Shown: in pieces, positions 27,682 to 53,000 of the stretch | Numbering within the stretch: the first letter of the stretch is position 1 | How the letters are laid out: the number at the start of each line of letters is the position of its first letter | Source: Psammoneis japonica | Taxonomy: Eukaryota | DNA length: 64,000 bases | Reading direction: 5' to 3' | Assembly: GCA_008632985.1 (NCBI GenBank) | Contig: QPGO01000249.1 | Location: forward strand, 1-64,000 | Translations under genes and position numbers: made by a program | The notes under the pieces: generated by a model | What the model was told of the DNA's origin: nothing | Database searches by the model: none | What the model saw: only the letters and a program-made list of their open reading frames with translations

Positions 27682-30600
27682 AGTGACAATGACAGTGTTC
27701 ATTCATTTTCCCATTGCCATTTTGTTTGTCCGACTCATCACTGTCACTGTCCCCTGCTGCGATCTCATCATCCTTTGCAGTGTCTTCCTTGTCATCATTC
27801 TCTCCCTCCCACTCACCAGCTTTGCTGTCTTGTTCCTCCACCTCATCCAAACAGTTCTCAAAACAATCCATTGCCTCCCGCTGTCGGATGGCATCCAGAA
27901 TTCCTTCATGCTGACTTGTCATCACTCAAATGATGTGGGTCAAGAAGTGAAGCCTCACTCCTGTTGCACTGCATGCACTTGGCAGTTCCAGATTGGCCGA
28001 TGATTCATCAAGCTCAATGTTGGCAATTGCAATTTGCTTGAGCAACACTCTTGTCTTGCATTCCTCAGCATCACCAGGAGTGTGCCATCCTCCAGCCCGT
28101 GGAACAGGGTTAAGATGTGTTCCCTTGCAAACCCATTCACCGGCTTTGACAGTTGTGGGTGGGTCAAACTCTTTCCACACCTCATCCTCCTGTGCTTTGT
28201 GGGGGAGTTCATCCCATTGCAGCAGACAGAAGCCCTCCTCAGATTCACAAGACAATGCGGCACAGCTGTTTGGAACAATTTCCTTGGCCATTTCCTCAGT
28301 CAGGAAGTCCAACACAGATTTGTGAACCAACTGCACCTTGTCAGCGTCACTCTTTTTGTCTGTTTGAATCACCTGGCACACTTGCCAATCGTTCAGTCCC
28401 TCAAAGATGGGCCACAGTTTGCAAGCTCGGTTGCCACCTGCATGTCGTGGCTGCTCTGTTGGCTCAACATTTTTAACCCATGGCCATTTGAGCTGATCCA
28501 GGCAGGCTTCACAAGCACAAGGAATTCTTTGCATGGCAATCCAACCAACGGGGAAAAGAGGTTCAAATCAGAAACAGTGCAAGGCTCCAATGCCACAATG
28601 GCATGTGCACACTTGCACCAATCCAATCAACTTGACTTTGATTGAAGAGCCAAGAACTTTGTCAGCTTCCTGCAGACAATGCACCCTTTGCATTGGCTTT
28701 CAAAGGGATTCCCTCTTGGCATGTTTTCTGACACCAACTGCGCCGAAAGCATTCTTTTGTTCTTTGTGACCATTTTGCAACATTCCTTGGCACAACTGTG
28801 TGCAGCTGCAACACTGTTGTCATCCATGACCAAAGCTTCAGGTCCAATTTTCCCATCCTTGTCATTGACTCCTGCAACAGTTGTGGGCTGCATTTCTTGA
28901 GGTGCGAGTGATTTGATGTGGGCTCCAATGCCATCAACCTCTCCTTTGCCATGTCCAGGTGCTCCAATGGCACGGTCAAACACAATGTTGCATTTGTGCA
29001 CAAACACAGACAACAAGTGCAGTGCCAAAGCACATCGGTGCTGTTTGGCACAACCATCAGTGTGATCCCAAATCACAAGCCACGCCTCACACAGGTTGCA
29101 GTTTTTTAACCAGGTGACAAACTTTTCCAAGTGAGCATGGGTGGTGGTGGCATGTTGCTTGGAAGAGTCAGAGAGGTGCGCATGATGTGTTTTCTGAAGC
29201 TCGTTGTCAACCATTGCATCGCAAACTCTTCCTTCAGTTGACAATGTTCGGTTGTCGCCACAATGGTCACCCTGAACTTGGTTGTTGAACTCTGCCTTCT
29301 GATGCTCGGAGCAGTCATGAGACGTGAATGGGCTGTTGGGTGTTGACTCAAATGCTTTGCAGCACATTTCCATGCAATGATTTTTCCCAAGAATGGCCGC
29401 GTGGGGAAGGTGGTGGCAGAGCTTCTTTAAACTTGGAATGCAGTGCTCTTTTGTAAAGACCCTGACTGGTTTTCAGTTCGTCTCACCTTTGCATCCTTGT
29501 TCCCATCTGGATCTGCCTCACAAACAGGACATGCTTCCATGCACACACCATGCTTGGAACAACTTTTTACAGGCAATCAATGTTGAAACGAAATTTGGGG
29601 CACACTGGGACTTTCATTCTGTTCCAACAACGGAGTTGGATGGGATGGGCAATGCTTGCATTCACCCAAAATGCATTTCCAATGAGGATGATCCTGACCA
29701 TTGACATTGCCACAAACGATGGTTGCAACTGCATCTTGGGCCCCAGGATGAAGGTGATGGCTGTTGGGGCCAAACGCTTCCTCTTGACAGACACACATTG
29801 TTTCCTCTGATTTGCCAAGGGCACTGTCACAGTTCTCCAAGTTCTCAGGATCCTCACTTGCAAGCTTCAACTGATTTTGCTCCACCTCCATCTCTTTTAA
29901 AAGCTTCCTTCGAAACCTGTTCAATGCATCTTGTAGAAAATTGGCGCTGGTGCAATCACTGCATTGACACATGCTGTGTTGACTTGCGTTCATTTTTCGA
30001 CACTGCTTGGGAATCAAAAATCAAAACATCGTGTCACTGATGAGGGTCTTGCCATTGGCATCACGTGCATGTTCAAATCCACCAACAGACACAGGCTTCA
30101 ACATGTTGTTGTGGAGCTCACGCGTGGACACATTGCGCAACCATTTGTTCACTCGTTTCTTGTTTCCATCTTCATCTTTGATGAGAATCATGTCTCGTGT
30201 GTTGGGAGACTGCACTGTGTCAGGATGATTTGACAACCAGTGCACAAATGCCTTGTGGATCTCAGGGGAAACTTTGTGAGGATGCCGACGGGGTTGCACT
30301 GAAGACCACATGACATCGTCAGTGTTTGAAATCAAGGCCTCTCTGCGGCAATCTTTCCCTTCTTCATTTGGCGACAAACAGTGCTCCAATTCAGGCCAAG
30401 TGCCTTGGCGCAGTCATGGGAAGACAACTTTTCCTCATCAGCAGATTTTTCTGGTGAACCGGAGATTTCAGTTGCCAGAGCACAGACAAATGATTTTTTG
30501 TCGTCGGTGAGGTGTTGACCATTGCTGGTGTCGTTGGCACGTGCCCACATTTTGCCCAACTGCTTGGTCATCTGCAAGGCCACATCTCCGAATGGACAAT

Positions 30601-30700
30601 TGCAGCCACACATCAATGACGGTCTAACAGAGCTTTTGTTGCAATGGTCCAAAAAGCGACGAATGTTTAGACACCTTGTCTGCTGCATCAATGTCATCAT
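27581..30700 (-). pseudogene. Sola2-like DDD transposase, inactivated
   Basis: WDHTDGCAKQ(H)RC, GAPGHGKGEVDGIG, RIPCACEAC, MCQCSDC and CSKHG motifs; in-frame TGA at likely Arg positions (30021-30023, 28568-28570, 27926-27928) plus frameshifts. Confidence 0.75.
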
Positions 30701-31209
30701 CGGCTCCGGCGGGTTTTTGACAATTTCTCTGTGTTGTCGCCACGGGGATGGTCTGCACGCTCATCCGGAGCACGCCGGCCATGCCAGTTTGAAGTCATTC
30801 AAGGCCTGGGTCTTGTGGCTTTGATGAGAGAAGATGTCTCCTGGCTGCAATCCGAGCAATCAAATTGATGATGTCAGCTTGGCCTCTCTGAGAACGTGAA
30901 AAAAGATGCTGCGTGAAACACAGCAGCAAGTTTGCGCATGTGCTTGGTTTTTCCCGCCTTTGTGCACTGCAAATGTGTCCAAGGGTTGTGCTGATGATCA
31001 TCCTGTGGTTCAATTAAAACCAGAATCTGCCTGCTCAGTCCCTTGGTTTGGTTTTGCCGCGGGACTCCCCAAAATTCCCCGGGATTGCCACCTTTTGCTC
31101 TCTGCGATTTTCCACGGGAAGCATGATTTCCCGGGGAATCGGCACGAGCTGCACTTCGTCACACATGCACCACACACGTGAATGAAAAATTGCACATTGG
31201 CAATTCCCT

Positions 31210-31890
31210 GTGCTTCCCTTCTCACACATTTCTGCATCTTCTGCATGCCGGGACGCAGGAGCCAGACAATCGACCGACCGCAACAAAAAAAATGGGCAAC
31301 ACGCCATGGCGCGTTCGCACCACATTTTATGATGGCTTTTGTCTGTCAATCATGACACCATTCAATGCATTCGACAACATCAATTGAGCGGGATCTGCAT
31401 CACAAAACACAAGATGAAATGTGGTTGCTCATGTGCAGAATGCCAGCGCAATTTTGAGTCGTCAGCCGTCAGTTGTTCTTTTGTCGTGCAGCCCAAAATG
31501 CAAGCCACAAGCCACACAGCATTCAGAAAGGCAAGCCACAAGGCATCCAGTGTGAAGGACAAGGCAAAATTAGAGTCGCACATGGTCAACAAAAATGTGG
31601 CAGATTGATCGACAATGTTTGTTCTTCCCTTTGACCTGTCTTGTGCACAGAACACAGTGCATCATGCATTCCTTCTTGTGTCGTGTGGTCACAAATGCAA
31701 ACCACAACGGCTCCAGAGAGCAGAGGCCAAGGCAAAAACAGAGCCGCACATGAGCAATGTCAACATGCATGATTCAATGGCGAAGTTCATTCTTCCCTGA
31801 CTCTGCCATTGGGGGCTGCTTTGTGTCGATTTGCCATTTTGGGGAATCCCCAAACGGGTGAAACCAAGCCAAGCTCAGCCCTTGTCTCAT
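31210..31890. mobile_element. Third copy of dispersed repeat family A
   Basis: Aligns to 14270-15250 (ACGCCATGG, GTCAATCATGA, TTCAATGCATTC, CCATTTTGGGGAATCC). Confidence 0.8.
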
Positions 31891-33249
31891 CTTCTTTCTC
31901 TTTTCTTTTGTCACATCACGATGCTTTTCTTCTCTGTGCGTGAGGTCTTTGTGCAGCAACTGCCCTTGGGAACACTGAGACATGGCTGCAGACACACGCT
32001 GTCAACAACACCTGTGTCCACTGTGTTGTGGGGTTGTTTTCAACATGGGACAAGACAAATGCACCAAATCCATGTGCAAAGTGCTTGTCACAGTCAAGGT
32101 TTTTTCTTTGCCTGACAGTTTCTTGTTGTGCAGACTGCATCATGTGTCAGAGATCTCTTCCTTTTGTGGGCACACGTTTGCCATTGTGGCATTCTCAATC
32201 ATGGCCTGCTGGCCCATCAGCTTGGGTTTCACCTTGCGTGGCACATGGCATGCTGTGGCATGAGTTTGCTGCTCCTTGATTGCATCAACACTTTGTTCTC
32301 CAGGTTTGTGCCATTGGGGGCAATGTCTTCTGGCATGTCCTTGAACTCAGGGTTGCACTCAACAAAGGCAATCTCAAACAAACCAATGTTGTGCTGGTGC
32401 AGCATCATGTCAAAAGCACTGCACATGTCAGCATGTTTCTTGGATCACAGCCTCACACTTGGCTGATGACACTTGATTGTCTTGCCATCAGCTGCACTCA
32501 GGATCTTCGCTCTGCATGCTTCTGCAATGCCAGCACAAAGGATTGCACCTTTTTTTCTGTTTCTCACTTGTCTTGGGTGGGACTGCAACAATTTTGTTCC
32601 TCTTGTGGGGTCAGCGGGAGTGTTTGGTCTTTCCTTTTAGCATGTTGACAGGTGTCCCCCAATGTCTGCCATTCTGCCCACATCAACAACAAGCACCATG
32701 GACAGATTCTTCACCTGGTTTGATCTTAAAAACACACCAGGGATTCCAGCCTCACAATGTGGTGCATGAGTGCTTGCTTGGTGCTTTGGAGCTCTGCTCT
32801 TCCGTTGGAGCTGCAGCTTCTCTGGGTGCACTTCTGTGCTTCTTGTTGCTCTTCTTTTTCCAAGCTTCTTCTTTGTCTTTGACAGCATGTGCTCACACGC
32901 AACTTGCTTTCTTGGAGATCTTTTGTGCAGCCAAAGAACTTTTGGCTTGGTCCAAAGGTGCATGGTCCAATGTTGTTGACTTTGAACACCAAAGCTTTCT
33001 TGCCAGTCTTCTTGTCCAGCAGCCAGAGCTCATGATCCGGCACTTGGCCATCATGTGTGATGTGGCATTTGTTCTTCACACCCTTTGAACTGAGAACATT
33101 TGCAGTCACCTTTTGTGGCACAAGCTTTGTGCCCCACCACCTGGGCATGGTCCAGCCCTCATCTCAAGCATCCGCTCCTGTGCATTTGTGGGGAGCTTCA
33201 TTTTGACCTTTGCCATTTGCGCACCATGCACCTGACCTCCAGCCAGCTG

Positions 33250-33950
33250 CCATGCTGAGGGTGAACCATCATTGAGGATGATCTCATCTGTGCTGATGCA
33301 TCTTTGTTGACTTGGCTTGAGCTCATCTCTGGTTTCTTGCCAAGCAACCAGCTGCAACAAATGCCGAGCAGATTGATTTGCATCCTTGTGTGCACAGCTT
33401 TCTTCTGGCAACCTTGAGCCAATTGTTGTGCATGATTTCATTCTTGCACTTGAAGTTTTTGGGGCTGTGTGGCTCAACTCACTGCAGCAGGGGCACACTG
33501 TGGTGTTGCTCTTGCTGCTCTTCTGGGCTTGACTTTGGCCCTTTGTTTTGATCAAACCCCTTGCCCTTGTTTTCATTCTCTTGTTGTCCCAGTCATTTGC
33601 ACACTTGCTGTTCTTCTTGTTGTTTCTCTTGTGACAAAGGTTGTCATCTTTTGGATGACTCAACAGTGCACCCATTGACTTCTTGAGGGTCTTCAGACAT
33701 GTGTCCTTTCCCAGGCTGCAATCTCTGATGAAGCTCTTCTTCAAGCTCTTGTGCAAGCAATCGTCGCTGTTCTCATCAAACAGGCACAATGCCACCCATG
33801 TCTTGAATGCCGCATCTTTCTTTTCCCCTTGTTTCCTTGTGGCAGTGTTGTCCTCATGCTCTTTGGCATTCTCAACAAACACACTGGCATCTTCTTGCCA
33901 ATGCTTTCACCTGTGGCATCTTTTGCTGGTTCTTGAGTCTTTCAACATGA
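33250..33950 (-). pseudogene. Ty1/copia (CoDi-like) gag, zinc knuckle and protease remnant
   Basis: LFDENSD..(H)KSL..D(C)SLGKDT(C)LKT..LLSH..D matches the diatom copia gag pattern NSD..YGSL..SLG.D.YPKT; CPCCSELSHTAPK knuckle; IILNDGS resembles the protease ILLDxGS. Confidence 0.65.
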
Positions 33951-35942
33951 CTCGTGCTCCTGTTGTTTCGTGCCCAGCATGCTCTGGGTTGATCTGGGGG
34001 CAAGGGTGCAAAATGGGTGTCAACCTCTCATGGAGTCAAAAGCAAGTGACTGGATTGGCTTTGTTGGCTTGGCTGGATCATCTCCAATCATTGCACTGTG
34101 GTTGGCTGGTTGGATGCAACAAAAACACCTGATTTTCTTGGTGAATTGAGAATCCTCACACCCGGGTTCCTTTGGGCAGCTTTGACTGCCACAAGCCTGG
34201 AGCATCATCACCAAGCAGACAGAAAGCTGCACATTTTCATGCTGTGTGATGACACAACTTGAGCTTGCATGCATGTGATGCAACACACAACAAACAACAG
34301 AAAAGCTGCGTGCCCCACCATGTGGCTTGTTTGTTTGCATGCAGATGGCTGCGCTGCTGACATCAAGGTGAGAGCAGCACCCCTGCACAACAGCAAGACA
34401 GCACTTGGCTCAATGATTGTGTTGAAATTTTTGTTTGTGCTTGCTTTTCATCATGCTGCATTTAAACATGCCAACAAGCAGCATTCTTTCTGACCTTTTT
34501 CACTTTTCCACTGTCTTCATGACAGCAGCGCATGAGGCAGCAGGGAGTTTGCGCACACATGCTGTCAGCGTCATGGCTGTCTTTTCATTGTGCATCACAA
34601 CTCATCACTTTAGAGGCCCTGTTGCTTTTTCAACAAACACGGCAGATGAATTTTTGTTCCTTCGTTGGCTGCATCACAGTGCAGCACGGCAGCGTGCTTT
34701 GTGACAGGACAGCGTGCAAGACTCAGCGTTGCAGTGGACGGGAGCTCCGATCCATTGGCAGCTGGGCCTGGAAATGGATCAAAGTGGCTTTCCTTCCTTG
34801 CATCTGTGCGTGATCCACGTGGGAGCCAATTTCACCTTCAGCAGTGGGCACACTCTGCTGGCCAACCACCCGCTGCTTGGCCGTTGGGCAACAATCTTCT
34901 TGCATGGCCAAAAAAACAAAAACACGGCAAACAAATGAAAAAGGCAAAATGCCAACAAATGGGCAAGCACTTCAGCCAGAGATGGGTCGAGGCACACAAT
35001 GCAGGTGTGCGCGCTTGCCAAGGCAAAGCGGCAAATGATGGCCTGCAACCCACGTGCCCTTTGTCGCCAGAGCGCTGCTTCTTAGCTGTTGGCAAATCCT
35101 GTCCCATCACTGCAGCTTCTCCCACACACTCTTCCTGGCAGCTCTGCCAACAGCCATGGTTTTCTGCCCTTCAGCCACAACAGCAGGAGCTCTTTCTTCT
35201 TTTCGGCGCAGGCAACAACCCGGCAAACGACGCCCTCTGTGATGTGATGAGAGCACAAGCTGGGCTGGCTGCTGGCATGGCTGACTTCCAAGAACCAAAG
35301 TGCGGCAGCTCCATCACGCATGAGTTGCTCTGCACAGCATGTTTCAGTGCAAATCCCGCCAGCAGGAGATGCGCTGACGACGCCTTTGATCATTGCATCT
35401 AGAGAGGAGAGCGACACAGGCAGGAGTGTGCATGGACGGGCGAGGTTTGCTTTGTGTGCGTCATCACGTCATCCGTGTCAAATGACGTTCCTTCTTTTTG
35501 ACTTCGCTTCCGTTGTCGAATCCGGAAGAAACGTGAGTCAGGACACACGCACGGACGGCTACGAGCTTCCATCTGTTTCCTACGTGAACCTGTATGTACA
35601 AATGTACCAATCGGAACTTCAACAGACACTTATGAATTCCAATCTTTTTTGCGAATTCCGATCAAAGCAGCTGGAAAAAATCCAAAAACACGAACAAGAG
35701 TTCGCGGATCGCGGTCAACACCCTTCGTAACTCTTGCTCTTGTTGTTGCCACAATCATCTCTCTCCGTGCAACACATTGCATAGACTTGCGTCGTCGTCT
35801 CGTTGTTGCATCGACTTGCTATTTCGACTCGATTCAACCACACGTACGCACACTCGTAAACGACATTCCTTCTTTGTTGTCCGTGCATTGCACTTTTTTT
35901 TATTGGTTGTTGTGTGCGCGCGCAAAAACAAACAGCAGTCAC

Positions 35943-38032
35943 ATGAAACTCGAAGAAGCCTGTCGCCGTCTCCGGGAAAATGATCCCACATTGACGGTGC
36001 TCGATCTTTCCGTGGGCTACTGGCATTCTCCTTCTGACAACAAACAAATTGGTGACGCCGGTGCAATTGAGCTCGCAGCGGCACTCAAACACAACACGAC
36101 ATTGAAAGAGCTCTATCTTGGCTCCAACCAAATTGGTAGCGACGGTGCAATTGCGCTCGCAGCGGCACTCAAACACAACACGACATTGACAAAGCTCGGT
36201 CTTGACGGCAACCAAATTGGCAACGACGGTGCAATTGCGCTCGCAGCGGTACTCGAAACCAACACGACATTGACAAAGCTCCTTCTTGGCTACAACCAAA
36301 TTGGTAGCGACGGTGCAATTGCGCTCGCAGCGGCACTCAAACACAACACGACATTGACAAAGCTCGGTCTTGGCGGCAACCAAATTGGCAACGACGGTGC
36401 AATTGCGCTCGCAGCGGCACTCGAAACCAACACGACATTGACATGGCTCGATCTTTGGAACAACCAAATTGGCAACGACGGTGCAAGAGCGTTCCTGCAA
36501 ACGCTGCAACAACACAATGGGAGTTTGGAGGACTTGGGCTTGAACGGCAGCACGGGCATTTCCGATACGTTGAAACGCGAAATTGAGGCATTGGCGAAAC
36601 AAAACAAGAACAAGACTCGAAATCCGCCGCCTCGGCCAAAATTGACTGGACGTGAGTTTCTACCATTTGTCTTGCATGTTTGTACCACCGGGCCATGATA
36701 ACTCACACATTGTCTGTTTTTCTATGTATTCCAAAAGAGCGATTCTTCCAGCACATTGATGAAATGGCTGCTGTCGCACAACGCAGCAGGGATGGTGACG
36801 CCATTTCCATTGCGCCCATTTTGGAGAAAGCTTGTTGTGACATGACGGACTTTCTTCAACTCAAGTATTACTTTACGGCCGTCAATGCACAGTATCGTCT
36901 GGGTACCATTACGGATAGCGATCGTAAAAAGTTGCTCTTCGATTCGCTCGTCAAGGCCAAGGACTGGTGTATATCTCCCTTTTATGTCGCCATGTATCGC
37001 GTCGCATTACGATATGCCGTATCGGAGAGTATCATTTCGATGCTTGAATATGATCAACTCGACGTGGCGGCTGTCGAATGTGACATTGCTCACGCACCTT
37101 TTATCCAAGCCATGCAAACAATAATTCGACAGAATGCTGCTCGTATCGACCGCATGGAACGGGTTTTCGACTCGTATCAACAAGCGGTTGCCACGACCTT
37201 TCAAGATCTACAGCAAAATCTTATTGCCATAAACAATCACATCAAAGCTCTTCATCAAGACATGCAATCCATGGCCCAAGCCGTGAATGACGTGCAAGCC
37301 AACACCCAGATGGTTGCCAACGCGTTCAACCAGTTTGCGTCGAGTTGGCGGTTCCGCAACAAAGTCACGGCGGGTTGCAAACTCGTGACGGGTGTCTTGA
37401 ATGCCGTGTCCTTTGGAGCTGCCGGCAGTGTGCTACAGGGCGTTGTGGATCTGACGGTGGCGCACATTGCCGACTTTGGTGACTTGTCACATCTTCGTGA
37501 GGTTGCGGCTGACATTGGCGTGTCACAAGAAGCAATGAACATGGTGGGAAGCGTGACTGTTGAGGAAATGATTGAGCACGGCATTTCTCTTGCCAGTGGT
37601 CCGATTGCCAATTATCAACTCAATCAAACTCTAAGCAAAGAGAATGCCATTGTCGTGATTGCCGCGTCAGCTGCAGTCCTTTCGAGCACCGTAGAACTCG
37701 ATGGTATCGAGGCACCGACGATCAAGCGACCTACATTGCAAGCTGGAGAACCGTCGGCGGCCGGTGAGTGTGCCGTGGAGACCAAAGACATGGATAGACT
37801 CCGATTGAAAGATGATGACGACGAGGAAGCAGATTTTCAAAATGTGCTACCAGAAAGCAAAAGGTCTGGTCTTGAAATGGAACTGAAACGCTTTGAGAAA
37901 AGACTTGAACGTAAAAAAGAAGCGGCAAAGTTGGCGAAGGAGCTTGGGCAAGATGTTACACCGATATACAGTGAGATACAAGAAATTTACTCAAAGATTG
38001 AAGAACTGGACGAGCAAATCCATAATAGTTAA
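35943..38032 (+). CDS. RNI-like/NLRC3-like LRR protein with C-terminal coiled-coil and hydrophobic helical domain; intron 36652-36737
   Basis: RLRENDPTLTVLDL cap; 28-aa NQIGxDGAIALAAAL..NTTL..L.L repeats; a GTGAGT..AAG phase-1 intron restores the frame to QRFFQH. Confidence 0.88.
36042..36485 (+). repeat. 84-bp coding tandem repeat (LRR units) with 168-bp higher-order alternation
   Basis: AACCAAATTGG at 36126, 36210, 36294, 36378 and 36462; units alternate S/KH and N/ET. Confidence 0.95.
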
Positions 38033-38269: not shown

Positions 38270-41200
38270 GATTGTGCGGCGTGTTTTGTTGCAGCTTTTG
38301 AAAGGTGGTGGGTTGATTGCCTTGCATGGTCGTCATCAGCTGGTGGCTGGTGCTTCTGCAACATTGTCATTTTTTCACAGCTTTTGCACCACCACAGAGT
38401 GATCCCTTTGGGGAGCCTTTTGCCTGCCCCCACTTGACAATCTTTGCGGAAATTTTTTTCAACAAATTGACAGAGACTTCTTGAGATGATGCTGCTCTTG
38501 ATTTGCTTCTCAGGGTTTTGGTTGGTGCACAACCATTGCGCATCATTGTTTGGCTGTCATGCTTTTGCAAAAAGAGCACACCTTTCTGAACAAAATGATG
38601 CAACAGAGCCTTGAAGACACTTGTGACACAAGTGCAAGCATGTTGTGGTTGACTGAGCTTTGGACTCATTTTGACAAAGCTCGCGTGTGCATTGCAAGCA
38701 TTTCTTTGTGCATCCAGTCCATGTGCACAGGTGCACCCTCTGGTCTGTGGCAGCTCTTTCTTGCCTGCTCTGCAACCACATTCTCTTCTTCATTGTCTGA
38801 GGCACAACATGGCTTGCTTCATTGTGGGAGATCTTGGCAGTGTTGTGCAAACAAGCCCAAGCTTTGTGCTGGGCGGGGTGGAGAGGTGGAGGCTTGTGCT
38901 GCTGAGCTCCTTGCCTTCTCTTGGATGATGCAAGGACACCACAAACCTCCCCGACAGCTCTGGGGGCCTTAAAAATGGGCAGGGCAACTCAAAACTGCCT
39001 CTGAAAGGCTCCCTGGTGCTGAGTGCACTGTTCTGTGTGTCATGGTGTCAGTGACTTGTCATTGCTCACATTGCTCTGCTCACATTTTCGTTTTGCCTGT
39101 CATTTTGCCAGCATGAGTGTCTGCAACTGCAAGAGCTCACAGCAGCCTTTCCAGGCCAATTTCTGCATGACACAAGTCCTTTGATGGCATGGCATTTGTT
39201 CATTTTTTGGAGAACCAAGCCTTGAAGGTTTCAGCACATCTGGTTGGTTCTAGAGAGAGGTGATGGATGAAATGTGGACAAGGTTGTGGATGGAATCTGG
39301 GCAAACAATGTGTTGTTTCTGCTCAACAGCAGAGCCAGTTAGTGTGTGGGCATGTGCACGCAGATGGAGTCTCTGTTGAGAGCAGCCACTCCAGAGAGCA
39401 GAAGTTGGTGCACAAGGTGAAAGATCCTTGACTCGTCGTGGCATTTTTGGCATTCTCTGTTGACAACAAAAAGTTGAACAATGCATTTAAAAATTGCTCA
39501 TGGCATTTTGCTGTGTTCTTCGGAGATGTGATTGCATGGCTCTCGGCACTCCAGTTCTCTTTAAGGTGTCATGCAAAGACCAGGTTGTGCAGAAAAAATG
39601 CAAAATCACTGCACTCATGCGCAGCCAAAACTGGTGGCAAAATTTCCATTCGTGGCACAATGTGCCACAGAAATTCTTGAACAGATTTTCCCGGGACTGA
39701 ACACGACAAAGCATCAACTTCGAGGAGCTGGATGACAATGATGTGTCTTTGTAAGATTGTCAAGAGCAGATGTTGATTGCGACAGGTCAAACTGCAAGTC
39801 ACACCCACATGTCCACAGATGTCATCATTTAAAAACTGTTGCCTTCCAATTTGTGATTTAGAGGAAATCTTGTGACATCTCCGGACACGTTGGTGTGAGA
39901 TGCCGTTTGACCCCCCAAACCTTCTTCCCCCGTGTGTGCTTGAGACACTTCGACACCTCTTTCTTTGTGACACTTGACATGCCAACAAGACAGTCACCAC
40001 TGAAAATCTTTGCTCCACTCAGTCCACTCAATGCAGAATTGTTGGTGTGGTCTGCGGCCCACGAGCAACAGCACACAAGTCTTTGCATGATGCGGTCATG
40101 CCCGCCAGGTGCATCAACTTTCCTGCTCTGCTGTGCAATGCTGTCACAACCAAAATTCTACCCAAGCAGCATTTTTCCACTGGAAAGTGGAGTTCTGGCA
40201 TGTGGAAATGTCAATGCAGGGTTGGCACTTTCTTAAAAATTCTGCCACACATCCACACTGTTTGTTCTGCTCAGGTGGAAGGCACAGCAGAATTTTTGAG
40301 CCAAAAATTCCACCCTGTGCACCCCCTTTGCATGATCTAAATCGTCTGTCCTTGGTGATCATGGACAAAAAAAATGCTGAAAGTTCTGCCGTCTCAATGC
40401 GGCATCTCAACCATGATTGCCACCCCATGCAACCCCAGCAAACATGCCAATGCCAGCTGCACATCTGGTGGCATGGCAAGCAGCACTCACAGGTGGCATG
40501 TCCTGAGTGCAGCAGAAACATTTGTGCTCCTTGTGGGGAAAGCAGATGAACCACTTGCACCACTTTCCACTTTGACAAGCTCCAAAGCACCCACCTGAGA
40601 TCACTGTTGTGAGTTTTGTGTTTAAATGGCACCAAACAATTGCACCAGCCCAAAGAACAATCAGCATCTCATTGCACTTCCACCAGCTTGACAAGAAAAC
40701 AAGCTGATCCCCAGTGCAGAAGACACGGCCAAGGGTTGCCACCATCAATCTTTCTGGATTTTTCCACATCATTGGCTTGAGATGCATTTTTAACAACCAT
40801 TTGGTCCACAATCACCTTGGTGCTTTTGCTGCAATGGGTGTCGAGTGGACCAGCGAGGGATGGCAAGACAGTCAAAGCAGTGAGGGAAAAAGTGTGCCAC
40901 ACTTAAAAAGCATCAAATGTGCAAAAGATGCAATGTGCAAAACAAACAAACTGCAAAACATGACCATCACATTTTCAACACTTTTGTCAGCAAATTCTGT
41001 TGTTCTCACCTTGCAGTCCGAGTGCCAACAAGCTTGATCATGAGTGCCACTGTGTCAGACGCGGCAGCCCTGTTTGTGTCATCTCTTGGAGCGAAAGTCA
41101 CGAAACACCCAAGAGGTGAGGAGCAGAAACAAATCCGCTGCAATCATTTTTTCACAATCACCATGGTCCACAATGGTGTTCATGCCGTCACTGCAATGGG

Positions 41201-41650
41201 TGCCAGGCAGACCTGTGAGCGACTACAAAACAAGAGCAAAAGTGAGAGAAAAGCAGCGCCATAGAAAAAAGCATCAAATGCCCAAAAGACGGGCTTTGCA
41301 ATGAATGCAAACACACAACCATGAGATTTTTAATGGCTCCTTTGGCAAGCATTGGCATTCTCACCTTTGTCCTCCAATCACCAAGCAGAAATGTCAACAC
41401 CACTGTTCGCTGTTGCCGACATGGCAGCACCGCGTGTTTCCTCTCTTGCAGCAAAAGCCGTCATCTCAAACACCCAAAAGGCGAGAGGGTTGGCAAAAAT
41501 CCAACACAAGCATCGTTTTCTTCACAATCACATCAGTCAACAATGGCATCCATGCCTTTGCTGCAATGGGTGCCAAGCACAACTGTGGGCATTCAAAGGC
41601 CATGGGGTGCAGGTGATGGCACGGTGTCTTTTTTGTGCGTCGTTTCCTTC
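38270..41650. mobile_element. Degenerate transposon block including a piggyBac-like remnant (about 39560-40550, + strand)
   Basis: DQVVQKK(C)KITALMRSQNWWQNF(H)SW resembles piggyBac DQ..Y..R.KWW..F.W; CQLHIW..VACPECSRNICAPC resembles the C-terminal Cys-rich domain; strong CpG/TpA loss. Confidence 0.55.
40780..41590 (+). repeat. Degenerate tandem repeat, period about 370 bp, about 2.5 units
   Basis: CTGCAATGGGTG preceded by CAAT-containing homology near 40830, 41190 and 41560; 41040-41220 aligns to 41395-41590. Confidence 0.7.
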
Positions 41651-41927
41651 GTCTTGGAGGTTTTCTTTCGGCTTCAACTTTTTGCGTGTGTTCACGTGGA
41701 TTGACTGCTGTTGCGTGGGTTCAACACTGATTGCTGCGGCTTCGTCTTCTTCCTGTAGGATGAGGCAGGCAGGACCATGTACTCTCTACTGTACAGCACA
41801 GGGTAGAACTGAGGATAGATTATTTCCCCTTCCCACGTCTCTCTGGCGCCGGGGGGGCGGGGACCGGGACTGGCCCTTGGGACTGGCGACCCAATTACCT
41901 GCAGTGCTTTTAGATTGAGCATTGAGT

Positions 41928-43046
41928 ATGCGTCAAGTTGATCGGAACTTGCACGACGCATGTGAACACGGCCGTCTTGCTGAAGTTAAGGAGTTGGTGC
42001 AAAGGTACGGTGCCAATTTCCGTTCGGCCGATAGTTCCGGCGACACGATCATGCACGTGGCATGTTATCATGGGCATTTACCAATTGTTCAATGGCTTTC
42101 ACAACTGCACCACGCTGAAGGTGCATCGCGCTCTGTGATGTATGCACGAAACAACGATGGCAATACACCTCTACACGACGCCTGCCATGAGGGGCACGTG
42201 CCAGTGGTGGAATGGGTATTGGGGCAGCAGCCATTGTCGTCGCACAAAAATCAGCACGGAAACAGGGAACAACATCAACCTTTTCATTTATCCCTGCTGT
42301 TGGCTACGGACAGTCGAGGCAATACACCCTTGCGTGACGCTTGTACTAAAGGCCGTTTGGATGTGGTCAAGGTAATTCGGCGTATGGTGTTCGACGCTAC
42401 TGATCGAATGGCTTTGGTGACGAAACAAAATGCTAAGGGCGATACCCCTTGGACATGGCTCGACAGATTGAAGGCCGTGGTGACATGGTGCGGGAATTGC
42501 GATCCTGGACGATGGTCGTTGAGCCCGTCTTTTTGAGCCATGCCGGACAAGATGCGTTGGCTGCTGCCTTCAGCGTCTTTTTAGATGAGCACCTGCTACG
42601 AGAGTATGGGATTCGCAGCTTTCTAGATTCACGCACCATCAAACCAGGGGATCGATGGGAAGATGCGATTGAACAAAATGCCCGGAGTTGTTGTATTTTT
42701 GTCTGCATCCTATCTGAAACGTACTTCTCTCGTTACTGGTGCCTACGTGAGCTGGACTATGCCTTGGAATCGGGGAAACCCATCATCCCTGTATATCTCA
42801 CGGCTGAGCCATTTCCCACTGCCGATATGGCCACCACAAGGCAACAAATGAATACCATATTGCAAGAACGCCCCCCCTCCCGATGATCCACAACTTTCAG
42901 TAACCCGAGAGAGATGGTGTAACAATTTATTGGAACTCAAGTCCATTCAAGGAATGCGCAACTATTCGACACACAAGCACAGTCTGGTTCATTTCCGAAA
43001 TGAAGTTGCACAAATCGTCGCAGACAAGCTCAACTCCCTTGCATGA
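41928..43046 (+). pseudogene. Ankyrin-repeat plus TIR domain gene with two frameshifts in C runs (or assembly errors)
   Basis: Ankyrin GDTIMHVAC, GNTPLHDAC and GNTPLRDAC; TIR VFLSHAGQD..SFLD..PGD.W..ILSETYFSRYWCLRELD..IIPVY; shifts at 42445-42448 and 42871-42877; the tail ERWCNNL..IQG..EVAQIV ends at 43046. Confidence 0.8.
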
Positions 43047-45299: not shown

Positions 45300-46760
45300 C
45301 GAGCGACTGGTGTGGTGAGCGGAAACTCAGCCAGAGCGATGCTCTCAGAAAAGAAAACCCGTTTTGAGGTTGCTTCAGTGACTGCTGTGTGGTGCTTCTT
45401 AACTGACAATGTGCTTTTGTGATGTTTGATGGGCAGTGAGTGCCCTGTTTCTCACCACAGGCTGAGCTGCCATCAGAGCGCCAACGCAAACAACTGAAAA
45501 TGGCTCTGAGCAGCATCTCTGACGTTTTGGCGATGCTGCATCACAAACATCAGCGATGGCAGTGACATGCCAGAAAACAATTTGGGAGCAGCTCTTGACA
45601 TGGCCAGTGGCACGTGTGATGACAATGCCTCATCAGCAATGTGAGAAACTTTTTGAAAAACAACCCTCAGGAGCATCGCCGACACGTTGCTGACATTTTG
45701 AGGGGAACTTGAACCTTTGCCGATGCTTGCCAATTTCACACCACTTGAGAGCACAATGTGTTGCCACACTGCCTGGTGCCACAGCAAAGCCATTCACCCA
45801 CACAGGCAGATGGGTGCGCCACGAGAGTGCTCAGTCAGCACCCCAGCACACGACGCCCAACACCCTGCACAGTTCTTGCCACTCGGCACCTCACTTGTGT
45901 GCCATGTGCCAGCAGTTGATTGCTGAAAAGGAGAGAGCAGAAAGGGATCAAAGATTGGCACATTAGATTCTAAGATGAAACATCAAGATTTTGTGTGAGT
46001 CAGTTGGAGAAAACATTGCTGATGCCAGCAGGGTCATGGGGCAGCCACTCACCAAAAAATCGGCAAGAGACCTTGAATTCTGAGAAGTTGGCAGGCAGGG
46101 GAGCATCTGCTGAAAGAGACATGCCAGGTGGAGCCAGCACTCTGCAAACAAAGTGAAACCCACTGCATGTGGCTTTCTCCTGAGACAAAAGTGCAAGAAA
46201 TCCAGGTCTGCTCTTGACAAACCTGTGTGTCATGGCCAGGCAGAGCAGACACCAACATTGTGACAGAAGCCAATGCCCTTTGACATTGTTGTGCATGACC
46301 CCAAGGAATCCAAGATTTGCAAAGGTGCTTTTTTCATGGTGGCATGCCACATGCTCAACGCACATGTGGGATTGTCGATGACCACGAATTGTGGTTGTGG
46401 GGGGCTGTTTGCACTTCCAAGAGCACAGCAGAGTGACAGCTGCAAGTGTCTGAGAGGAAAAACCAAGTCCAGAAATGACATGCACGTGGTGGCTCACATG
46501 AAATGTCAGAAGCAATGCTCGAATGTCAAACTCTGAGAGAGTGGTGGCATCAAAAAGTGAATGGAGAGCTGAGAGCCACAAGTGGTCACAACCAGTGGCT
46601 CCCAAGCACAAGACCTGCACTGCCAGCTCTGCAATGGGTGCTCTTTGGCTGTAGAATACAAGGCACCATGGTGGCACAAGACTGGACATGGTTCAGGTGT
46701 GGAGCAGGGGATGTGGGGAAATCAACGCACATCTGGACAAGCTGGCCGGTGTGTTGATTC
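45300..46760. mobile_element. Degenerate CpG/TpA-depleted block, family unassigned
   Basis: Same compositional signature and Tyr-poor ORFs; no diagnostic motif recognised. Confidence 0.55.
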
Positions 46761-46850
46761 TTGGATGTAGAGTTCCCCTAGCGTGTTTGTATGTCGGAAT
46801 TGCAACAACTTTTGGCATTCAGAGTTACTCCTTATCAAGTGCATACTACC

Positions 46851-48469
46851 TTACCATTTTTCCAACACCGCCACACAGTCACCAACAGTTGCCGCTCCAC
46901 CCGCCAGTCGTTCCGTCAACTCCTTTAAGTCGCCCTTGTGGTTGCGCAACAACAATTCCGCTTCCATGTATGCCCATTTGAGCAAGTCTTCTTCCTGATC
47001 CGTAAACCACGTCAGCACAGACTCGTCATTGCCCAGCAGCTCCTTTTTCTCATCCAAACGTTCTAAAAAGCCCCGACCTTCTCTCGGATCGGAAACAATC
47101 AGCTGCGGGTGCTTGGACGACTCCATCGCTACAGGAGCCATGAGCCAAATTAGTACTTTGAGAATGCCCACATCGCTCAAAAGAGAGTCCATTACATTGC
47201 TCATTGAAGAATCAGCTCCTGTCTTTTTCGTCGATTCAAATATCAGTACCGCAGCCTGAAAAAAAAATGTAAGAAAACGCTCATGCGACCTTAGCAGTGA
47301 TAAACGAGAGATGATTCAAAACTTCTGTCCGACTTACTTCAAGAGCATTCGGACGAAAAGCAAAGCACGGCAATCCCAAGCTGTAAGCAGCAAAAAAGGC
47401 GGCTGCCTCGCATCGGCATTCCCGTTCAGTGTCGACATTAATGAGACGCGTCAAACCACGAACGACAGTCCCAGTGACTTTCCCGGACCCCAAAGAAAGA
47501 GGCATATCTTCTTTTTGCGGTAGATCTACCTTATCCAGCAGCTCAGAATCAGCTTGGTTCTTTGCTACCGACGCTCCGGCCTTGATCAAGTCAAAAAAGT
47601 TGTCCACCACGCCAACTGCAATTAGAGCTGTCAAAAGTATGTTTGTAAAGGGAGTGAAATCACCCATACCCAGAACATTGCAGACGAAGCAGAAACCCAC
47701 TACAGAACTAAAAGCCAGAGCACTCGCCACTTCGGAGGATCGATCATCGATTGGTACATCGTCAGCATCGTCCAAGCGTTCTTGTCGCGTCTTGAAAGAT
47801 CCGTCTGGACACTTTACTTTCGTCGTGGGCGTGTTTGGAAGAGGCATAATCTCGGCTTGCAAAGCGCCATACTGTGACATTGCCCCATTCTTTTTACAAA
47901 TTGACATAATATTTGCCATAGCTGGTGCATTGTGGGACTTGGCAGTGGCCTTCGTGGAGGAAAAGCGATAAAAGCGGGATGAATACACAGGAAAGCCGTA
48001 CACAAAAAAACTACAAAGAAAATCGAAAGCAACTTTCTCGATTTTCGATACTTACATCCACAAGAGCCATTAAACTCCTTCCACTGGCAGGTACTCGTCG
48101 CATATTCATTTCGTTCAAGAGTGATATTGGATCCTGGAGATCCACCAGCGCTTGTTCTTCCTCTTGTGTTTCATCTAATATCTTTGCACAGAGACCTGTC
48201 AAGACTGCATCGTATTGATCTCCTTCGTCCAAGGCCGCAAAGGCTGATGCCAATCGTGTTCTTTCATCTTCGTTCTGTAGAACGATACTGGCTCCGTTGG
48301 GTTGGGGTTCTTGTTGTTGCTGCTGCTGATCGGCATCGTACAAGCGCGTCGTGGTGAAAGCCATGCGGTCGCGATGGGACATCCTGTGTGCTCTCGCATT
48401 GTTCATCAGTGAGACTGGCATCAATGCGTTTGTGCTTCCAAGGCAAACCACAACACCAATAAATAACAT
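46851..48469 (-). CDS. Probable plastid protein of the M41/FtsH-protease-domain-like family with degenerate HExxH; introns 47950-48055 and 47256-47337; start approximate
   Basis: Three exons join in phase 0 (LVD|ATAK, ALE|AAVL); two TM helices; CEAAAFFAAYSLGLP; MAPVAME; C-terminal TVGDCVAVLE. Confidence 0.7.
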
Positions 48470-50679
48470 CGTTCGAAGATATATGCGAGGGAACGGCCAC
48501 ACCTTTCGAGTACATGGAACGCCTGTCCCTCTTGGATCAAAAACTTTTGTTACCCATCGATCATCGCCACTGACATGCGACTTCATTGCGTCGTTGTGTC
48601 TGCCCGCTTTTGTTGTGTGTGCACTGCGTGAAACTTTTACGTGGGGGTGACCATTTAGCTGGAATAATTCGACTAAAATTTCTTTTTGCGCGTTCGTCCG
48701 CCATCCGAATTCTTCGTGCTTTTTGTGTGGAGAAAAAATGCCTCCGACCATGGTGAGTACACCGTTGCGACGTCGTCAGTGTTGATATGGGAGGCTGCAT
48801 CGGTGCTTGAATATCTCTATTATCCCTATTAGAATGTATCTATAGTGCGATGCAGCTTCCCAGTTTAGATTTTATGATTCATTTTTACATCACTCGTTCT
48901 CATGCTTTTTTGCTGTTGCCGCCGACAGAGTACAAAAGTGCCCAACACCTCAGCGGCAAAGGTTTATGCCAAGGTTACCTCATTTATTGATAGATTTATC
49001 AACAGTGAAGTTAGTTTTGATGGTGTATTCCCCTGAAAATCATTCTGGCTCGTGAGTCACAATGGAAAGATTGAGACAAGCTGATTCATGATGCTCTTGC
49101 TCTCCTTTGAGCAAGTGTTCCTGCGAATCGACCACCAGTCATTTCTAAGAGCAGATGGAAGGTACACTATAAACAATGTTGAAGAGACTCACAGTCAGCT
49201 GAAGACACAAGTGCTGTCCCCTGCGGCGCAACGCTAGTGACAATTGTTCCGCAGGGTTCCTGCAGGACGAAGAGAGTGCACCTTGTTCGTGACGACAGAG
49301 AGGCTGGACGCTGCAAATGAAGTGAAATAGTTGAAGCTCACTGTTCAAGATCTATCTCTTCTTTAGTTGATGAGGAGAATGATGCAGCAGCCTCACCTGA
49401 AGGAACCCATTCATCTGTGCCCAAAATAACTGCAATGGTCTCTCCAGACGTGCGCCAATCAACTCGAGCAACCAAGAAGCCACCGCCGACTCATGCCAAT
49501 CTGCATGACAAGATTAAGCACCATTTATCATAAATGGCACTTTAATCGAGCAGCAGCATTGATTAGGAGATTACATGATAGCCATGTATTCTCTTTGAGC
49601 CTCGACAGCACGAACGGCGTGTAGAGAGCACTGCAATAGAGAATGTAATAATGCATGAGTAATGTAGTGTGGCAACATTAAGTTTTGATATGTCATGCAC
49701 AGTGCTATCATTCTAAGCACTCAAAGCATTTCTATCTAAGTTCTCACTGTATGTTCCTGTGTGCCTGTATTCAATCGACAATTTTAAATTCGGGAGCCAA
49801 GAATTCCAAAGAATCGTCACCGTGGAGCATTCGTCGCTTTGAAAATTCGAGGACACAAATGATCCACTAAATGATGTTTAGCTTCGGACGGCGGAAGCAG
49901 TCACTTCAAAAAGGCTGCAGAAGCTGTTGGTTCCCATGTCGCACCGTAACTACTGCTTCCCAAAACCAACAAGGAATTCTGAGCTGTGAGGAAAAAGGAG
50001 CTTCAGGAGAATAATTCCTGATGAGGCGCTCATCAAAAACCGGTGTGCTTCCTTGCGATAGAAAATAGGGTGCCGGAATCATGGAAGCATGTGTTCCTGG
50101 AAGACAAACAATTCGGGGATGAATAAGGGCAAACGTTAGGCTCTGCAACACTGGGACACTGTGCGAAGCAATGAATGGCACTTTACTTACCCCATCTTCG
50201 TTTCTGTCGTTCGTTCCGCTGTGCAATGATGATGGCATTCCAAAAGCAATGACTGTGCTGTCAACGACTGACGTGTAATCATTTCTATCGTTCGTTCTGA
50301 TGCTATGCTGATGGCATTCCCCAAACATGCCGTTAGTTGGAACATCGTCGGTCGTCGGTTTATTGTTTTTTGTTTTTTCAGAGCGGCCGTTGATTTCACA
50401 ATAATTGGTAATGAGCGAGTCATCTACACAACTCGTGGTATGTGCGTCTCGTAACCGAGCGAGGAGCAGACAATGTACCGGGCCTACGGCTTCATGGGCC
50501 CCTCTTTCACGTAGTGATGTGAACGGCTGGAACGCGACGGCCCGCCGACCGCCGATCTTCAACCTCAGATTAGTCCGACTAGTCAACCCATCGGCAGCAA
50601 AGATTGGTGTGCCGGTGGTTGGCTCCTCCTTGTCCCTGATCATAACTCAAAATTGGTTAAAATGTCTTGACAAAGTTCC

Positions 50680-53000
50680 AGCTCTTCCTTTTTTTGTTCT
50701 GCTTTTGAGAGCAAGAAGGCGCATCTGCTCAAAAATTCGTTCTCCACCAAGGCTCAGGCAGTGGATTGCTCTTTTTCTCACAATCTTGGGGGTGCTCAAC
50801 TTTCTCCTCTTTGTTGTGTTCTGTGAAACGATGTTGGCTTCATTTGGCGTGGGGCTCTTGATGTTGTGCTGTTGCTGCTGACCACCCGGCATGGCACAAA
50901 CAGCATGAGGCATCATGGCAAAAGCAACTCAGCAATGGCACATGCTTGCTTTCTTCACATTGTTCAGCAAGATTGGCGCCAACGCATTTGTGCTTCCCCA
51001 AGGCAAGCTGGAGCACCAATGAATGACACCATTTTTTGGAAACACATCATGTGAGGCAATGGCCACACCTTTTGGGTGAATGGAACACCCACCCACTTCT
51101 CTTAAATCAAGATCATGTCTGTCAACACAAATCATCACCATTGACTTGCCACACCACCAAGGCCCATGTTGGGGGGGGCATGTCCAGACAGCTGCTGCCC
51201 ACCCAAAGCAATTCTGCCCACATCTGTGCATTTGGGTTTTTTTCTGTGCAACTTCAACATGTGAAAGAGATGCAAAGTCTGCCCAGCATTCATCACATTT
51301 CACTGAATGCCCCATTTGTGCTGTTTGACAGACTGTTCCAGCGCAAATCCCACACATGATTTTGTGCAGATGTGTCCCCTGTGTCCACCAGTTCTCAATG
51401 TTGCATGTGACTGCACTCATGGCATGTGGACAGCTGGATGTGCTGGCCTGAACATCAACCTCAGCCAATTTGGTCCAATTGGAAAATGCATTGGCAACAA
51501 TGTTGTGTTTGTGTTGGCATGGTTGACAGCTCTTTTGCCAGCTTTTCCTTTTTTTCTCAAGCAAACCTTCCAAACTCAAGGTGTGCTGGTTGTCCTCCTT
51601 GTTCCCAAACAGAGCTCAAAATTGGCAAAGATGTCTTGACAAGAACAAACAAAGGAGCAGGACCACAAAGCCTTTTGCTGCAAGTGCTCCCAACTTTGTT
51701 TTGGCTCTCTGGCTTGTGCTTGTTCCAGCTCTTTTATTTTTGTTTTTGTGCACACTGCTTTTGAAGCTGATCATCCTCAACAAAACAGCTGGAGAGCAAG
51801 AAGGTGATCTTCTCTGTGAAAAAATGTGGTTTGCTGTTTTTCCACAATCTTGTGTGCCTGCATCTGATCTCTGTGCTCTTCTCTTCTTTGCTTTTGTGTT
51901 TTTTCTCTCTCTCAAACAAATGATCAAAATTGGCAAAGCCAATTTTCCATCACATGTGACAAACAAATGATGCCAGTGGCTGAGGCAGAGCAACTTAATT
52001 GGCAATCGTCGGACATTTGTCCAACTGTGGCAGGCAGGTGTGTTTTTGAGTTTCCACTTTATAAACAACATGCTCTTCTGCTGAAAAACTGAGAGTGCCA
52101 GCAAAGTGGCACAAACAAACTTGCTGCTTGTCAACATGGCAACAAGGCCTTTGATCTATTTTGTTGGTGTGAAAAAGCAACATTGTCAAAAAAACAAGAA
52201 AGCTGATCAAGGCTTTGGTGAAACACTGCTCAAAATTCCAACACACAGCCAGCGCTACAGCACTGGGAATGGTGTGATGTTCAGTGGCTGCCCCACAGAG
52301 AAACCCCCACCAGAGGTGTGGAGCAACAAGGGAGGAGGGAAATCAAACAGATGATGAGCTTGTTCAGTGTAAAATGCTGCCAAAGATTCGACAAACAAAT
52401 CGGGAGGACAAGCTGTCAATGGCCATGAAAGCTGGGCCCAACAACTCCACAAGTGCACTTGATGAAAAAACACAGCAGGCCAACAAAAGCAAGCAGCAGC
52501 AGCATGGCATTGACAAGAAAAATGAGACACCACCATGGGGGCAGTTAAAGCTGACAGTGCGCAGCAGCGTGCAAGCTGCTGGAGACAGCTGAAAAAGCAG
52601 TGTGACTGCTTTCTGCCAAAAAGCTTTGTCCAGTCAAACACCAGCACTTGTTGAAACTGTGACTTGAAACTGCAACTGTGCATGATTGGAGCAAGCAAGA
52701 TTTTGGTGCAGGAGGGTTGTGCAAAACTTTGCAGAGATTGTGCGTGCGCGCATTGGAGGAGACCCGCAAAGCCAGGGAAAGTGGTGTGCATGAGGCAGGC
52801 ACCACAACAACCACAAAGAAATTCTGCTTTTTAACATGGATGCACACCACTGGGAAAAAACCTGGCTGCATGAAACAACCATGATTTTGCCATGCGTGGA
52901 GTGTCGCAGCAGCAGCAAAGTGCCGGGGGTTGTCTCGGGGTGACTGCAGCTGGGTGTCCCAGCAGCAGCACATAATGGTTGCTGTGGTCATTGTTTCATG
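50680..53000. mobile_element. Degenerate CpG/TpA-depleted block, family unassigned
   Basis: Same signature; no diagnostic motif recognised. Confidence 0.55.

Follow-up and report, generated by a model that had tools for sequence, protein, structure and literature searches.

Surviving TpA steps in TpA-erased blocks of a diatom genome show a flank bias consistent with context-dependent loss

Between the genes of a 64,000-nucleotide stretch of Psammoneis japonica (GenBank assembly GCA_008632985.1, contig QPGO01000249.1, positions 1 to 64,000 of the forward strand; hereafter the window) lie blocks of DNA from which the dinucleotide TpA has almost vanished. One of them, at 38282-41621, raises the question treated here: do the few TpA that remain differ in their neighbours from those that were lost, and what do they say about the process that removed the others? 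An earlier note on this block had counted 17 TpA by eye, 13 of them in the context YTAR (Y, pyrimidine; R, purine), four in contexts matching on one side only (half-sites) and none in RTAY. A full listing of 38281-41640 gave exactly these figures: TTAA nine times, TTAG and CTAC twice each, and CTAG, CTAA, GTAA and ATAG once each. The T of these steps, which span 38970-41332, is found at positions 38970, 39251, 39340, 39488, 39562, 39752, 39830, 39859, 40159, 40234, 40338, 40623, 40791, 40904, 41224, 41262 and 41331. From base composition, 231 TpA and 190 CpG are expected in this interval, which holds 17 and 53, and TG and CA stand at 1.79 and 1.83 times their expectation (observed over expected, o/e).

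Erased DNA was delimited in the window by a hidden Markov model (HMM) run on TA plus CG against TG plus CA steps, and segments of at least 1 kb were counted as blocks. Ten were found, all between genes, amounting to 26,733 bp and containing 87 TpA; the block under study has 17 TpA, 51 CpG and 755 TG or CA within its HMM limits. Per kb, the blocks contain 3.3 TA against 37.6 in the rest of the window, 13.0 CG against 55.4, and 230.5 CA/TG against 148.5. The loss of TA and CG (76.8 per kb) is thus matched by the gain of CA/TG (82.0 per kb). Expressed as o/e, TpA has fallen to 0.05 and CG to 0.22, CpA/TpG has reached 1.85, and the GC content is 0.484. Among A-containing steps TpA alone was erased, as AA/TT (o/e 1.27, compared to 1.18 in unmutated DNA), AC/GT and AG/CT are not depleted. 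Smaller shifts were also seen. ApT is lower in erased than in unmutated DNA (53.7 vs 64.6 per kb), and so is GA/TC (110 vs 140), where simulated conversion of TA and CG reaches just 130-138; GC steps are in excess (77.5 vs 58.7 per kb), and every simulation falls short of that value. For GA/TC and GC, the cause is either another composition of the blocks' ancestors or the action of a third process. The edges of the blocks are sharp and the adjoining genes have a TA o/e of 0.54, so that the erasure is confined to defined domains. CpG was lost to TpG and CpA, the pattern that decay of 5-methylcytosine (5mC) would leave. The two losses are partly uncoupled: per kb, the region 30-32 kb retains 36 CpG and 2-3 TpA, while both were lost at 3-7 kb.

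The flanks of the survivors were compared to two null models. The first was a first-order Markov chain built from the dinucleotides of the block itself. In the second, the precursor null, contexts were taken from tetranucleotides centred on TG or CA, into which TpA turns and from which it regrows. For the block at 38282-41621 the Markov null expects 31.8% YTAR and 19% RTAY, which gives a probability of 2×10−4 to obtain at least 13 YTAR out of 17, and of 0.028 to obtain no RTAY; under the precursor null, these probabilities are 3.6×10−7 and 0.005. As the hypothesis arose from this very block, it was tested on the nine others. Their 70 TpA comprised 33 YTAR, 34 half-sites and 3 RTAY, where 22.5, 34.4 and 13.1 are expected by the Markov null (p 0.0018), and 15.6, 36.6 and 17.9 by the precursor null (p 1×10−7). 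All ten blocks together gave 46/38/3 (classes in the same order, here and below), against 28.0/42.8/16.3 for the Markov null and 19.0/45.7/22.3 for the precursor null (p 5×10−13). The flank bias of the survivors is confirmed as real, and it generalises beyond the block in which it was noticed.

The 35,475 bp of non-erased DNA showed the opposite bias, with 209/714/404 TpA against 372.8/661.4/292.8 expected. A non-coding, unmutated element at 2401-2790, resembling a miniature inverted-repeat transposable element (MITE), is biased in this same reverse direction (5/15/8), so coding constraints alone do not explain the contrast. The surviving CpG of the erased blocks are without any Y/R flank bias (67/170/110 observed, 67.7/171.2/108.2 expected). 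Along a gradient of erasure, the share of RTAY among TpA went from 31 to 28, 17, 2 and 2% as the local TpA share dropped, and YTAR rose in the last two bins only.

Losses in the 16 NTAN contexts were described by a Poisson model having one log-loss term for the A of each strand, set by its 3′ neighbour only. These terms were 0.32 for A, 1.09 for G, 1.97 for C and 2.28 for T. The earlier note had supposed that NTAN contexts are unequally depleted, and counts within the window bear this out: compared to a uniform rate, the model gave a likelihood ratio (LR) of 98.9 (p 3×10−21), with a residual deviance of 10.9 and all 16 contexts fitted, and the non-erased DNA is biased in reverse. The order of loss, T and C alike, then G, then A, was unchanged under two other proxies for the ancestor. 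The data support independent, additive effects of the two strands. A special status of TTAA, as a palindrome or as a transposon target site, is ruled out, as 26 TTAA were observed and 24.5 follow from the additive model. With the blocks as saturated as they are, rates need differ by no more than a few fold to produce the survivor pattern. The YTAR rule is nevertheless a simplification, because in the window the second base out also counts: an A at +2 protects (LR 62), and the best protected contexts are TAAA/TTTA and TAGA/TCTA. For TAAA/TTTA the D/N ratio is 0.378, compared to 0.02-0.09 for most other contexts. A run of at least three T or A abuts 57% of the survivors, against 15% of the TpA in unmutated DNA.

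These observations would be accounted for if, in addition to the usual decay of CpG, the blocks had been brought to their final state by a locally acting mutation process that rewrites TpA to TpG or CpA (A:T to G:C). Loss of the A of TpA, on either strand, would be fastest before a pyrimidine (TAT about as fast as TAC), slower before G, and slowest before A. If the strands are hit independently, RTAY offers two good targets and YTAR two poor ones, which predicts that RTAY is lost first, half-sites next, and that YTAR persists longest. The flank would be read next to the base that changes. Adenine deamination, to hypoxanthine, is the simplest chemistry for an A>G change, and an enzyme whose active site has a TadA-like geometry may carry it out. 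That the loss depends on context, with the A of TAY as favoured target and the flank adjacent to the changing base, is the best supported of the readings considered and has in our judgement about an even chance of being right.

The position of the changing base relative to the flank bears on the products rather than on the survivors. A change of the adjacent base (RTA>RCA, TAY>TGY) should raise RCA/TGY relative to YCA/TGR in erased DNA. In unmutated DNA the ratio (RCA+TGY)/(YCA+TGR) stands at 1.054. In erased DNA it amounts to 1.367, ranging from 1.16 to 1.52 across blocks and exceeding the unmutated value in 10 out of 10. When the fitted rates were applied in simulation to the unmutated DNA of the window, used as a proxy for the ancestor, the ratio reached 1.199 with change of the base adjacent to the flank, 1.073 with a uniform rate and 0.994 with change of the far base. 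A second product ratio, 1.166 as observed, was simulated at 1.145, 1.063 and 0.953 respectively. Mass balance gave a similar picture. Some 237 RTAR and 323 RCGR were lost, with a rise of about 390 for RCAR but of just 137 or so for RTGR; on the other side, some 263 YTAY and 300 YCGY were lost, and YTGY rose by about 433, YCAY by about 174. In forward simulations, change of the adjacent base came closest to the observed composition, with a distance of 9.3 against 13.1 and 16.6 for dinucleotides, and of 24 against 37 and 39 for trinucleotides.

A second organism was sought among 80 metagenome loci (285,598 bp) chosen via alignment of the silicon transporter, a protein that is also encoded in the window. 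The same HMM found erased-like segments of at least 300 bp in 4 of the 80. The informative one, L028, is a 4,722-bp contig from a microbial mat, with a silicon transporter at 829-2178 that is 57% identical to that of the window. In the last 2 kb beside this gene (2783-4718), TA and CG are largely replaced by TG/CA. Its HMM-defined erased segments hold 24 TpA, namely 14 YTAR, 9 half-sites and 1 RTAY (p 2×10−4 and 0.005), against 23/53/33 in the remainder of the contig, and the product ratio goes from 0.924 to 1.364. The bias is already present (9/8/1) in a half-depleted segment with 18 TpA in 828 bp. Since this erased DNA lies beside the transporter of a second alga, the process is not confined to a single genome or assembly. 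The leading survivors of L028 are CTAG (7) and TTAA (5), and GTAG is also among the commonest; as these contexts differ from those of the window, the rule common to both is that a purine after the A protects. Other loci were too small to count: L002 and L003 are the same sequence, with 3 YTAR and 1 half-site, and L038 has 4 TpA.

Several points weigh against loss at TAY as we propose it. The protection by A at +2 is not evident in L028, where, judged by eye only, CTAG and GCTAGC dominate; the A-tract refinement may be particular to the window genome. No simulation reproduces the AT (53.7), GC (77.5) and GA/TC (110 per kb) values of the erased DNA, and none fits well in absolute terms. The product argument takes the unmutated DNA of the window as stand-in for the ancestors of the blocks; with the same stand-in, survival of CpG becomes flank-dependent as well (LR 46), and a YCG-biased decay of CpG may account for some of the product excess. 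The few conversions that could be polarised are 4:1 contrary: ATAA>ATGA (twice), GTAG>GTGA and CTAC>CCAC disagree, and GTAG>ACAA alone fits. These five events, two of which lie 4 bp from each other, come from two short alignments of 67% and 77% identity (50818-51089 with 48272-48523, and 15468-15533 with the MITE-like element). Paralogues within the window (15 alignments, 2587 columns) yielded 54 CA|TG pairs, 35 of them after filtering for conserved flanks and removal of duplicates, and discordant TG|CA were barely rarer at half-sites (16/146 vs 19/130, p 0.37). A transposon origin of the blocks could not be demonstrated, none of 150 scanned open reading frames (ORFs) scoring above the Pfam cut-off. 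Finally, the survivor counts are fitted as well, with fewer parameters and no free context parameter, if survivors are supposed to be regrown rather than spared. The claim of the earlier note, that the A of TAY is preferred on either strand, is upheld in part, by the additive per-strand order and by the product excess; survivors as such cannot tell TAY from RTA, and the polarised events go the other way.

Regrowth, which the earlier note left out, supposes that TpA was lost alike in all contexts, and that the TpA now seen are recent C-to-T back-mutations needing a 5′ pyrimidine, through dipyrimidine damage of the ultraviolet type or slippage in T runs. YCA would give YTA and TGR would give TAR, and RTAY could not arise. 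The eligible precursors (1340 for YTAR, 1258 for half-sites, 0 for RTAY) predict 44.9/42.1/0, where 46/38/3 were observed, and a forward simulation yields the same shape; the abundance of survivors abutting T or A runs and the drop in GA/TC go in the same direction. The products, however, are not explained. To bring the first ratio to 1.37, about 38% of YC cytosines would have to be mutated, which would result in a GC content of 0.415, 56 CC/GG and 233 TT/AA per kb, compared to 0.484, 104 and 169 observed. Furthermore, the half-depleted segment of L028 contains TpA far above the level of regrowth and is biased nonetheless, RTAY drops in the intermediate bin of the gradient before YTAR rises, and YTAR is under-represented in unmutated DNA of the same genome. 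As regrowth falls short on the product side, context-dependent loss is favoured, and regrowth becomes a possible contributor to the standing survivors. We regard it as unlikely to be the explanation, though it deserves to be taken seriously.

A second alternative keeps the sparing of YTAR and moves the flank. The A of 5′-R-T-A would be hit, a pyrimidine two bases 5′ of the target, above all a T run, would protect it, and the far base pair would change. Survivors cannot separate this from loss at TAY, as both describe the same base pair. Four of the five polarised conversions agree with it, and TTTA and TCTA are the best protected 4-mers. The product ratios, however, should then be 0.994 and 0.953, whereas 1.367 and 1.166 were observed, and RTGR rose by only about 137 while some 237 RTAR disappeared. 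The product shift of L028 is in the same direction as that of the window. We consider a flank read at −2 distinctly unlikely.

Protection could also reside in the DNA itself and not in the agent. TpA beside A/T tracts may open or flip less readily, or be packaged differently, so that any agent acting on TpA would reach it less. A-tracts have unusually long base-pair lifetimes, and the high D/N ratio of TAAA and TTTA, together with the effect of the +2 base, are in keeping with this. On the other hand, the commonest survivors of L028, CTAG (7) and GTAG, are not tract junctions, and in the window TAGA is protected without any tract. Such an explanation appears improbable to us.

Error-prone repair has still less in its favour. 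Patches triggered by deaminated 5mC might be filled by a polymerase that, like polymerase eta, places G opposite T at WA (W, A or T), or T:G mismatches might be repaired toward G:C as by Vsr, a candidate put forward in the earlier note. TpA and CpG loss do share the same blocks, and polymerase eta makes WA-to-WG changes (PMC11507097). WA includes AA, yet AA/TT is undepleted (o/e 1.27 vs 1.18), and TpA is nearly gone where CpG is mildly reduced (2-3 TpA and 36 CpG per kb at 30-32 kb). A Vsr-type repair has no substrate, because a T:A pair offers no mismatch, and we found nothing that favours it. The likeness to the WA>WG changes of somatic hypermutation lies in an A-to-G change after T, locally targeted and downstream of cytosine deamination; polymerase eta was rejected as agent, AA being unaffected and the changes being essentially only transitions at TpA. 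Repair of either kind is in our view very improbable. Lastly, one could invoke chance, or an artefact of composition due to flanks rich in T and A, since the over-representation of TT and AA (o/e about 1.27) raises the expected number of TTAA. This can practically be dismissed: both nulls include this excess and are rejected, the bias is replicated in nine other blocks and in another organism, and CpG in the blocks of the window is free of Y/R bias.

Hypermutation restricted to TpA is known from one preprint, in another lineage. There, two integrated viral regions of Bigelowiella natans were followed in mutation-accumulation lines; of the 231 new mutations that they acquired, 230 were A>G or T>C, all located at TpA, and an adenine deaminase, an ADAT2 homologue, is proposed by the authors (Mettrop et al., bioRxiv 10.64898/2026.01.13.699255). 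As here, the A:T to G:C changes in DNA of nucleocytoplasmic large DNA viruses and virophages are confined to TpA, give TpG/CpA and are local to DNA domains, and the genome has clusters low in TpA and high in CpA+TpG; in the diatom blocks, too, TpA loss is matched by TpG+CpA gain. The host differs, being a rhizarian, and its regions are partly depleted (Rho TpA 0.45, compared to an o/e of 0.05 here). As far as the main text of the preprint goes, it reports no CpG co-depletion, unlike what is seen here, gives no flanking-base rule and does not mention diatoms. Our literature search turned up no description of a TpA-erasing process in diatoms, nor of the neighbour rule, which is the new part.

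Repeat-induced point mutation (RIP) of ascomycetes is also a transition hypermutation of repeated or foreign DNA with a dinucleotide preference that leaves adjoining genes intact. It converts CpA to TpA, however, raising TpA and AT, whereas the diatom blocks have lost their TpA and retain a GC content of 0.484; RIP as the process is rejected, as it requires an excess of TpA, and the blocks have a TpA o/e of 0.05 with CpA/TpG at 1.85. In regard to a possible dependence on duplication, part of the block at 38282-41621 is about single-copy by depth. Short duplications escape RIP, and the intact state of the 390-bp MITE-like element resembles this sparing.

The native tRNA target of TadA is U-A-C-G, and in the natural tRNA targets of eukaryotic ADAT2/3, A34 is mostly followed by a purine, the very context that is spared in the blocks. 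If so, the rule would look more like that of bacterial TadA than like that of ADAT2/3. The earlier note drew a parallel with TadA and the base editors derived from it, which is true of some versions only: early editors strongly prefer YAC (PMC7056309) and the engineered TadA-8e variant ABE8e-YA prefers YAY over YAR, but ABE8e and ABE9 are described in the same account as having no motif preference (PMC12528748). TadA and its derivatives, like the process described here, target an A after a pyrimidine and favour a 3′ pyrimidine; their substrates are tRNA loops or the single-stranded DNA that Cas9 exposes, whereas here both strands of duplex DNA are changed over kilobases and the 5′ base is strictly T. 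In the blocks, T indeed precedes the target A, and a 3′ pyrimidine is favoured according to log-loss and product ratios, with which 4 of the 5 polarised events disagree. The contrast with ADAR drawn by the earlier note holds in what PMC10661471 reports of ADAR2, whose hot spot is 5′UAG, as TAG is relatively spared here. ADAR editing shares A-to-I chemistry, a preference for 5′ U and clustered hyper-editing of repeats; it acts on double-stranded RNA, whereas the change here is in the DNA itself. An ADAR-type preference for 3′ G was also rejected: in the window TAG disappears more slowly than either TAC or TAT, and CTAG and GTAG are among the commonest survivors of L028.

The blocks themselves differ in copy number. 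Depth, summed over the contigs of the source sample (three runs, one sample), is 1000-2800 at 25501-32170, compared to about 55-70 over single-copy genes, which identifies a high-copy repeat family. Among the differences listed between copies of this repeat (25.5-32.2 kb) are TG<->CA changes of two neighbouring bases at once, for example at 26710/11, 28898/9 and 28903/4, which independent conversion of a single ancestral TA or CG in each copy would produce. The block at 38282-41621 amounts to some 5-9 copies over 39.5-41.5 kb and is about single-copy over 38.2-39.5 kb. Its 3′ end, at 40785-41590 (plus strand), is a degenerate tandem array of three copies spaced by 362 and 370 bp and 62-78% alike (65% for 41148-41590 vs 40787-41220), with a depth of 319-563, about 5-9 times single-copy. 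The Pfam scan covered 150 of the 283 ORFs of at least 60 amino acids in erased DNA; none scored above cut-off, the single sub-threshold hit being to KilA-N (E 0.005). All 16 ORFs of at least 90 amino acids lying in or mostly in the block at 38282-41621 were without a Pfam match, no domain ran into erased DNA from 17 boundary ORFs, and no deaminase domain was seen among the window ORFs scanned.

The remaining erased blocks are at 440-2396 (3 TpA, 19 CpG), 2796-7357 (4562 bp, 9 TpA, 15 CpG), 13497-15960 (12 TpA), 17797-19421 (7 TpA; a paralogue of the preceding one with about 81% identity), 45365-46767 (5 TpA) and 50663-53052 (13 TpA), all as delimited by the HMM, and in a run at 25524-35351 made of 25524-26702, 26828-30618, 30780-31056 and 31330-35351 with CpG-richer islets between them. 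Small CpG-rich islets, such as 31058-31158, break up this run, in which TpA has nearly vanished and CpG has been lost in part only. The block at 50663-53052 contains a mutated paralogue, at 50818-51089. This 270-bp segment corresponds to unmutated 48272-48523, part of an ORF 2.5 kb away, and most differences between the two are CG>CA or TG and TA>TG or CA. The MITE-like element (2401-2790, 390 bp) lies between two erased blocks, has terminal inverted repeats of 30 nt that are 83% complementary, and kept 28 TpA and about 31 CpG; a mutated fragment of its family is found at 15468-15533. Its intact state points either to a recent insertion or to a length too small for targeting.

The window derives from the nuclear genome of a diatom or a close relative. 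It carries an intronless silicon-transporter gene at 60304-62016 (plus strand; Pfam Silic_transp, E 1×10−202), whose top relatives in a search of 5.8 billion proteins are 72-73% identical, as well as genes for IBR/RING, HMG-box, BTB, LRR, bestrophin and ankyrin-repeat proteins. The block at 38282-41621 is flanked 5′ by a coiled-coil ORF (36656-38032, plus strand) and 3′ by an ankyrin-repeat gene (41919-42536, plus strand). A tRNA-Pro (TGG) gene at 265-336 (plus strand, Rfam 59.8 bits) is located in a short unmutated segment adjoining an erased block. A leucine-rich-repeat gene at 35502-36698 has internal tandem repeats at 36028-36494, with a register of about 84 bp and 86-90% identity; length variants of these repeats, with joints at 36187-36596, occur among the contigs of the source sample.

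What would carry out the loss at TAY can only be proposed tentatively. A natural DNA adenine deaminase of diatoms, targeted through chromatin and acting at 5′-T-A-Y with a TadA-like rule on both duplex strands of repeats, may be common to at least two diatom lineages and is perhaps the same system as in Bigelowiella; we find this possible, with the balance of probability against it. To our knowledge, no natural DNA adenine deaminase serving genome defence has been identified, and our search of the literature on such enzymes turned up only base-editing reviews and a phage dI paper. The neighbour rule itself offers a fingerprint for candidate enzymes in vitro, with TAT and TAC equivalent and ahead of TAG and then TAA, additive over the strands and without a TTAA term, and it separates the process from ADAR-like, polymerase-eta-like and RIP-like ones by sequence alone. 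The deaminase, should it exist, would also deserve attention as a natural A-to-G editor of DNA. The rule also provides a practical model of repeat decay in diatoms and explains why domain searches miss such repeats. Should a shared deaminase prove to be responsible, eukaryotes would possess a widespread editor for genome defence that works in the direction opposite to RIP.

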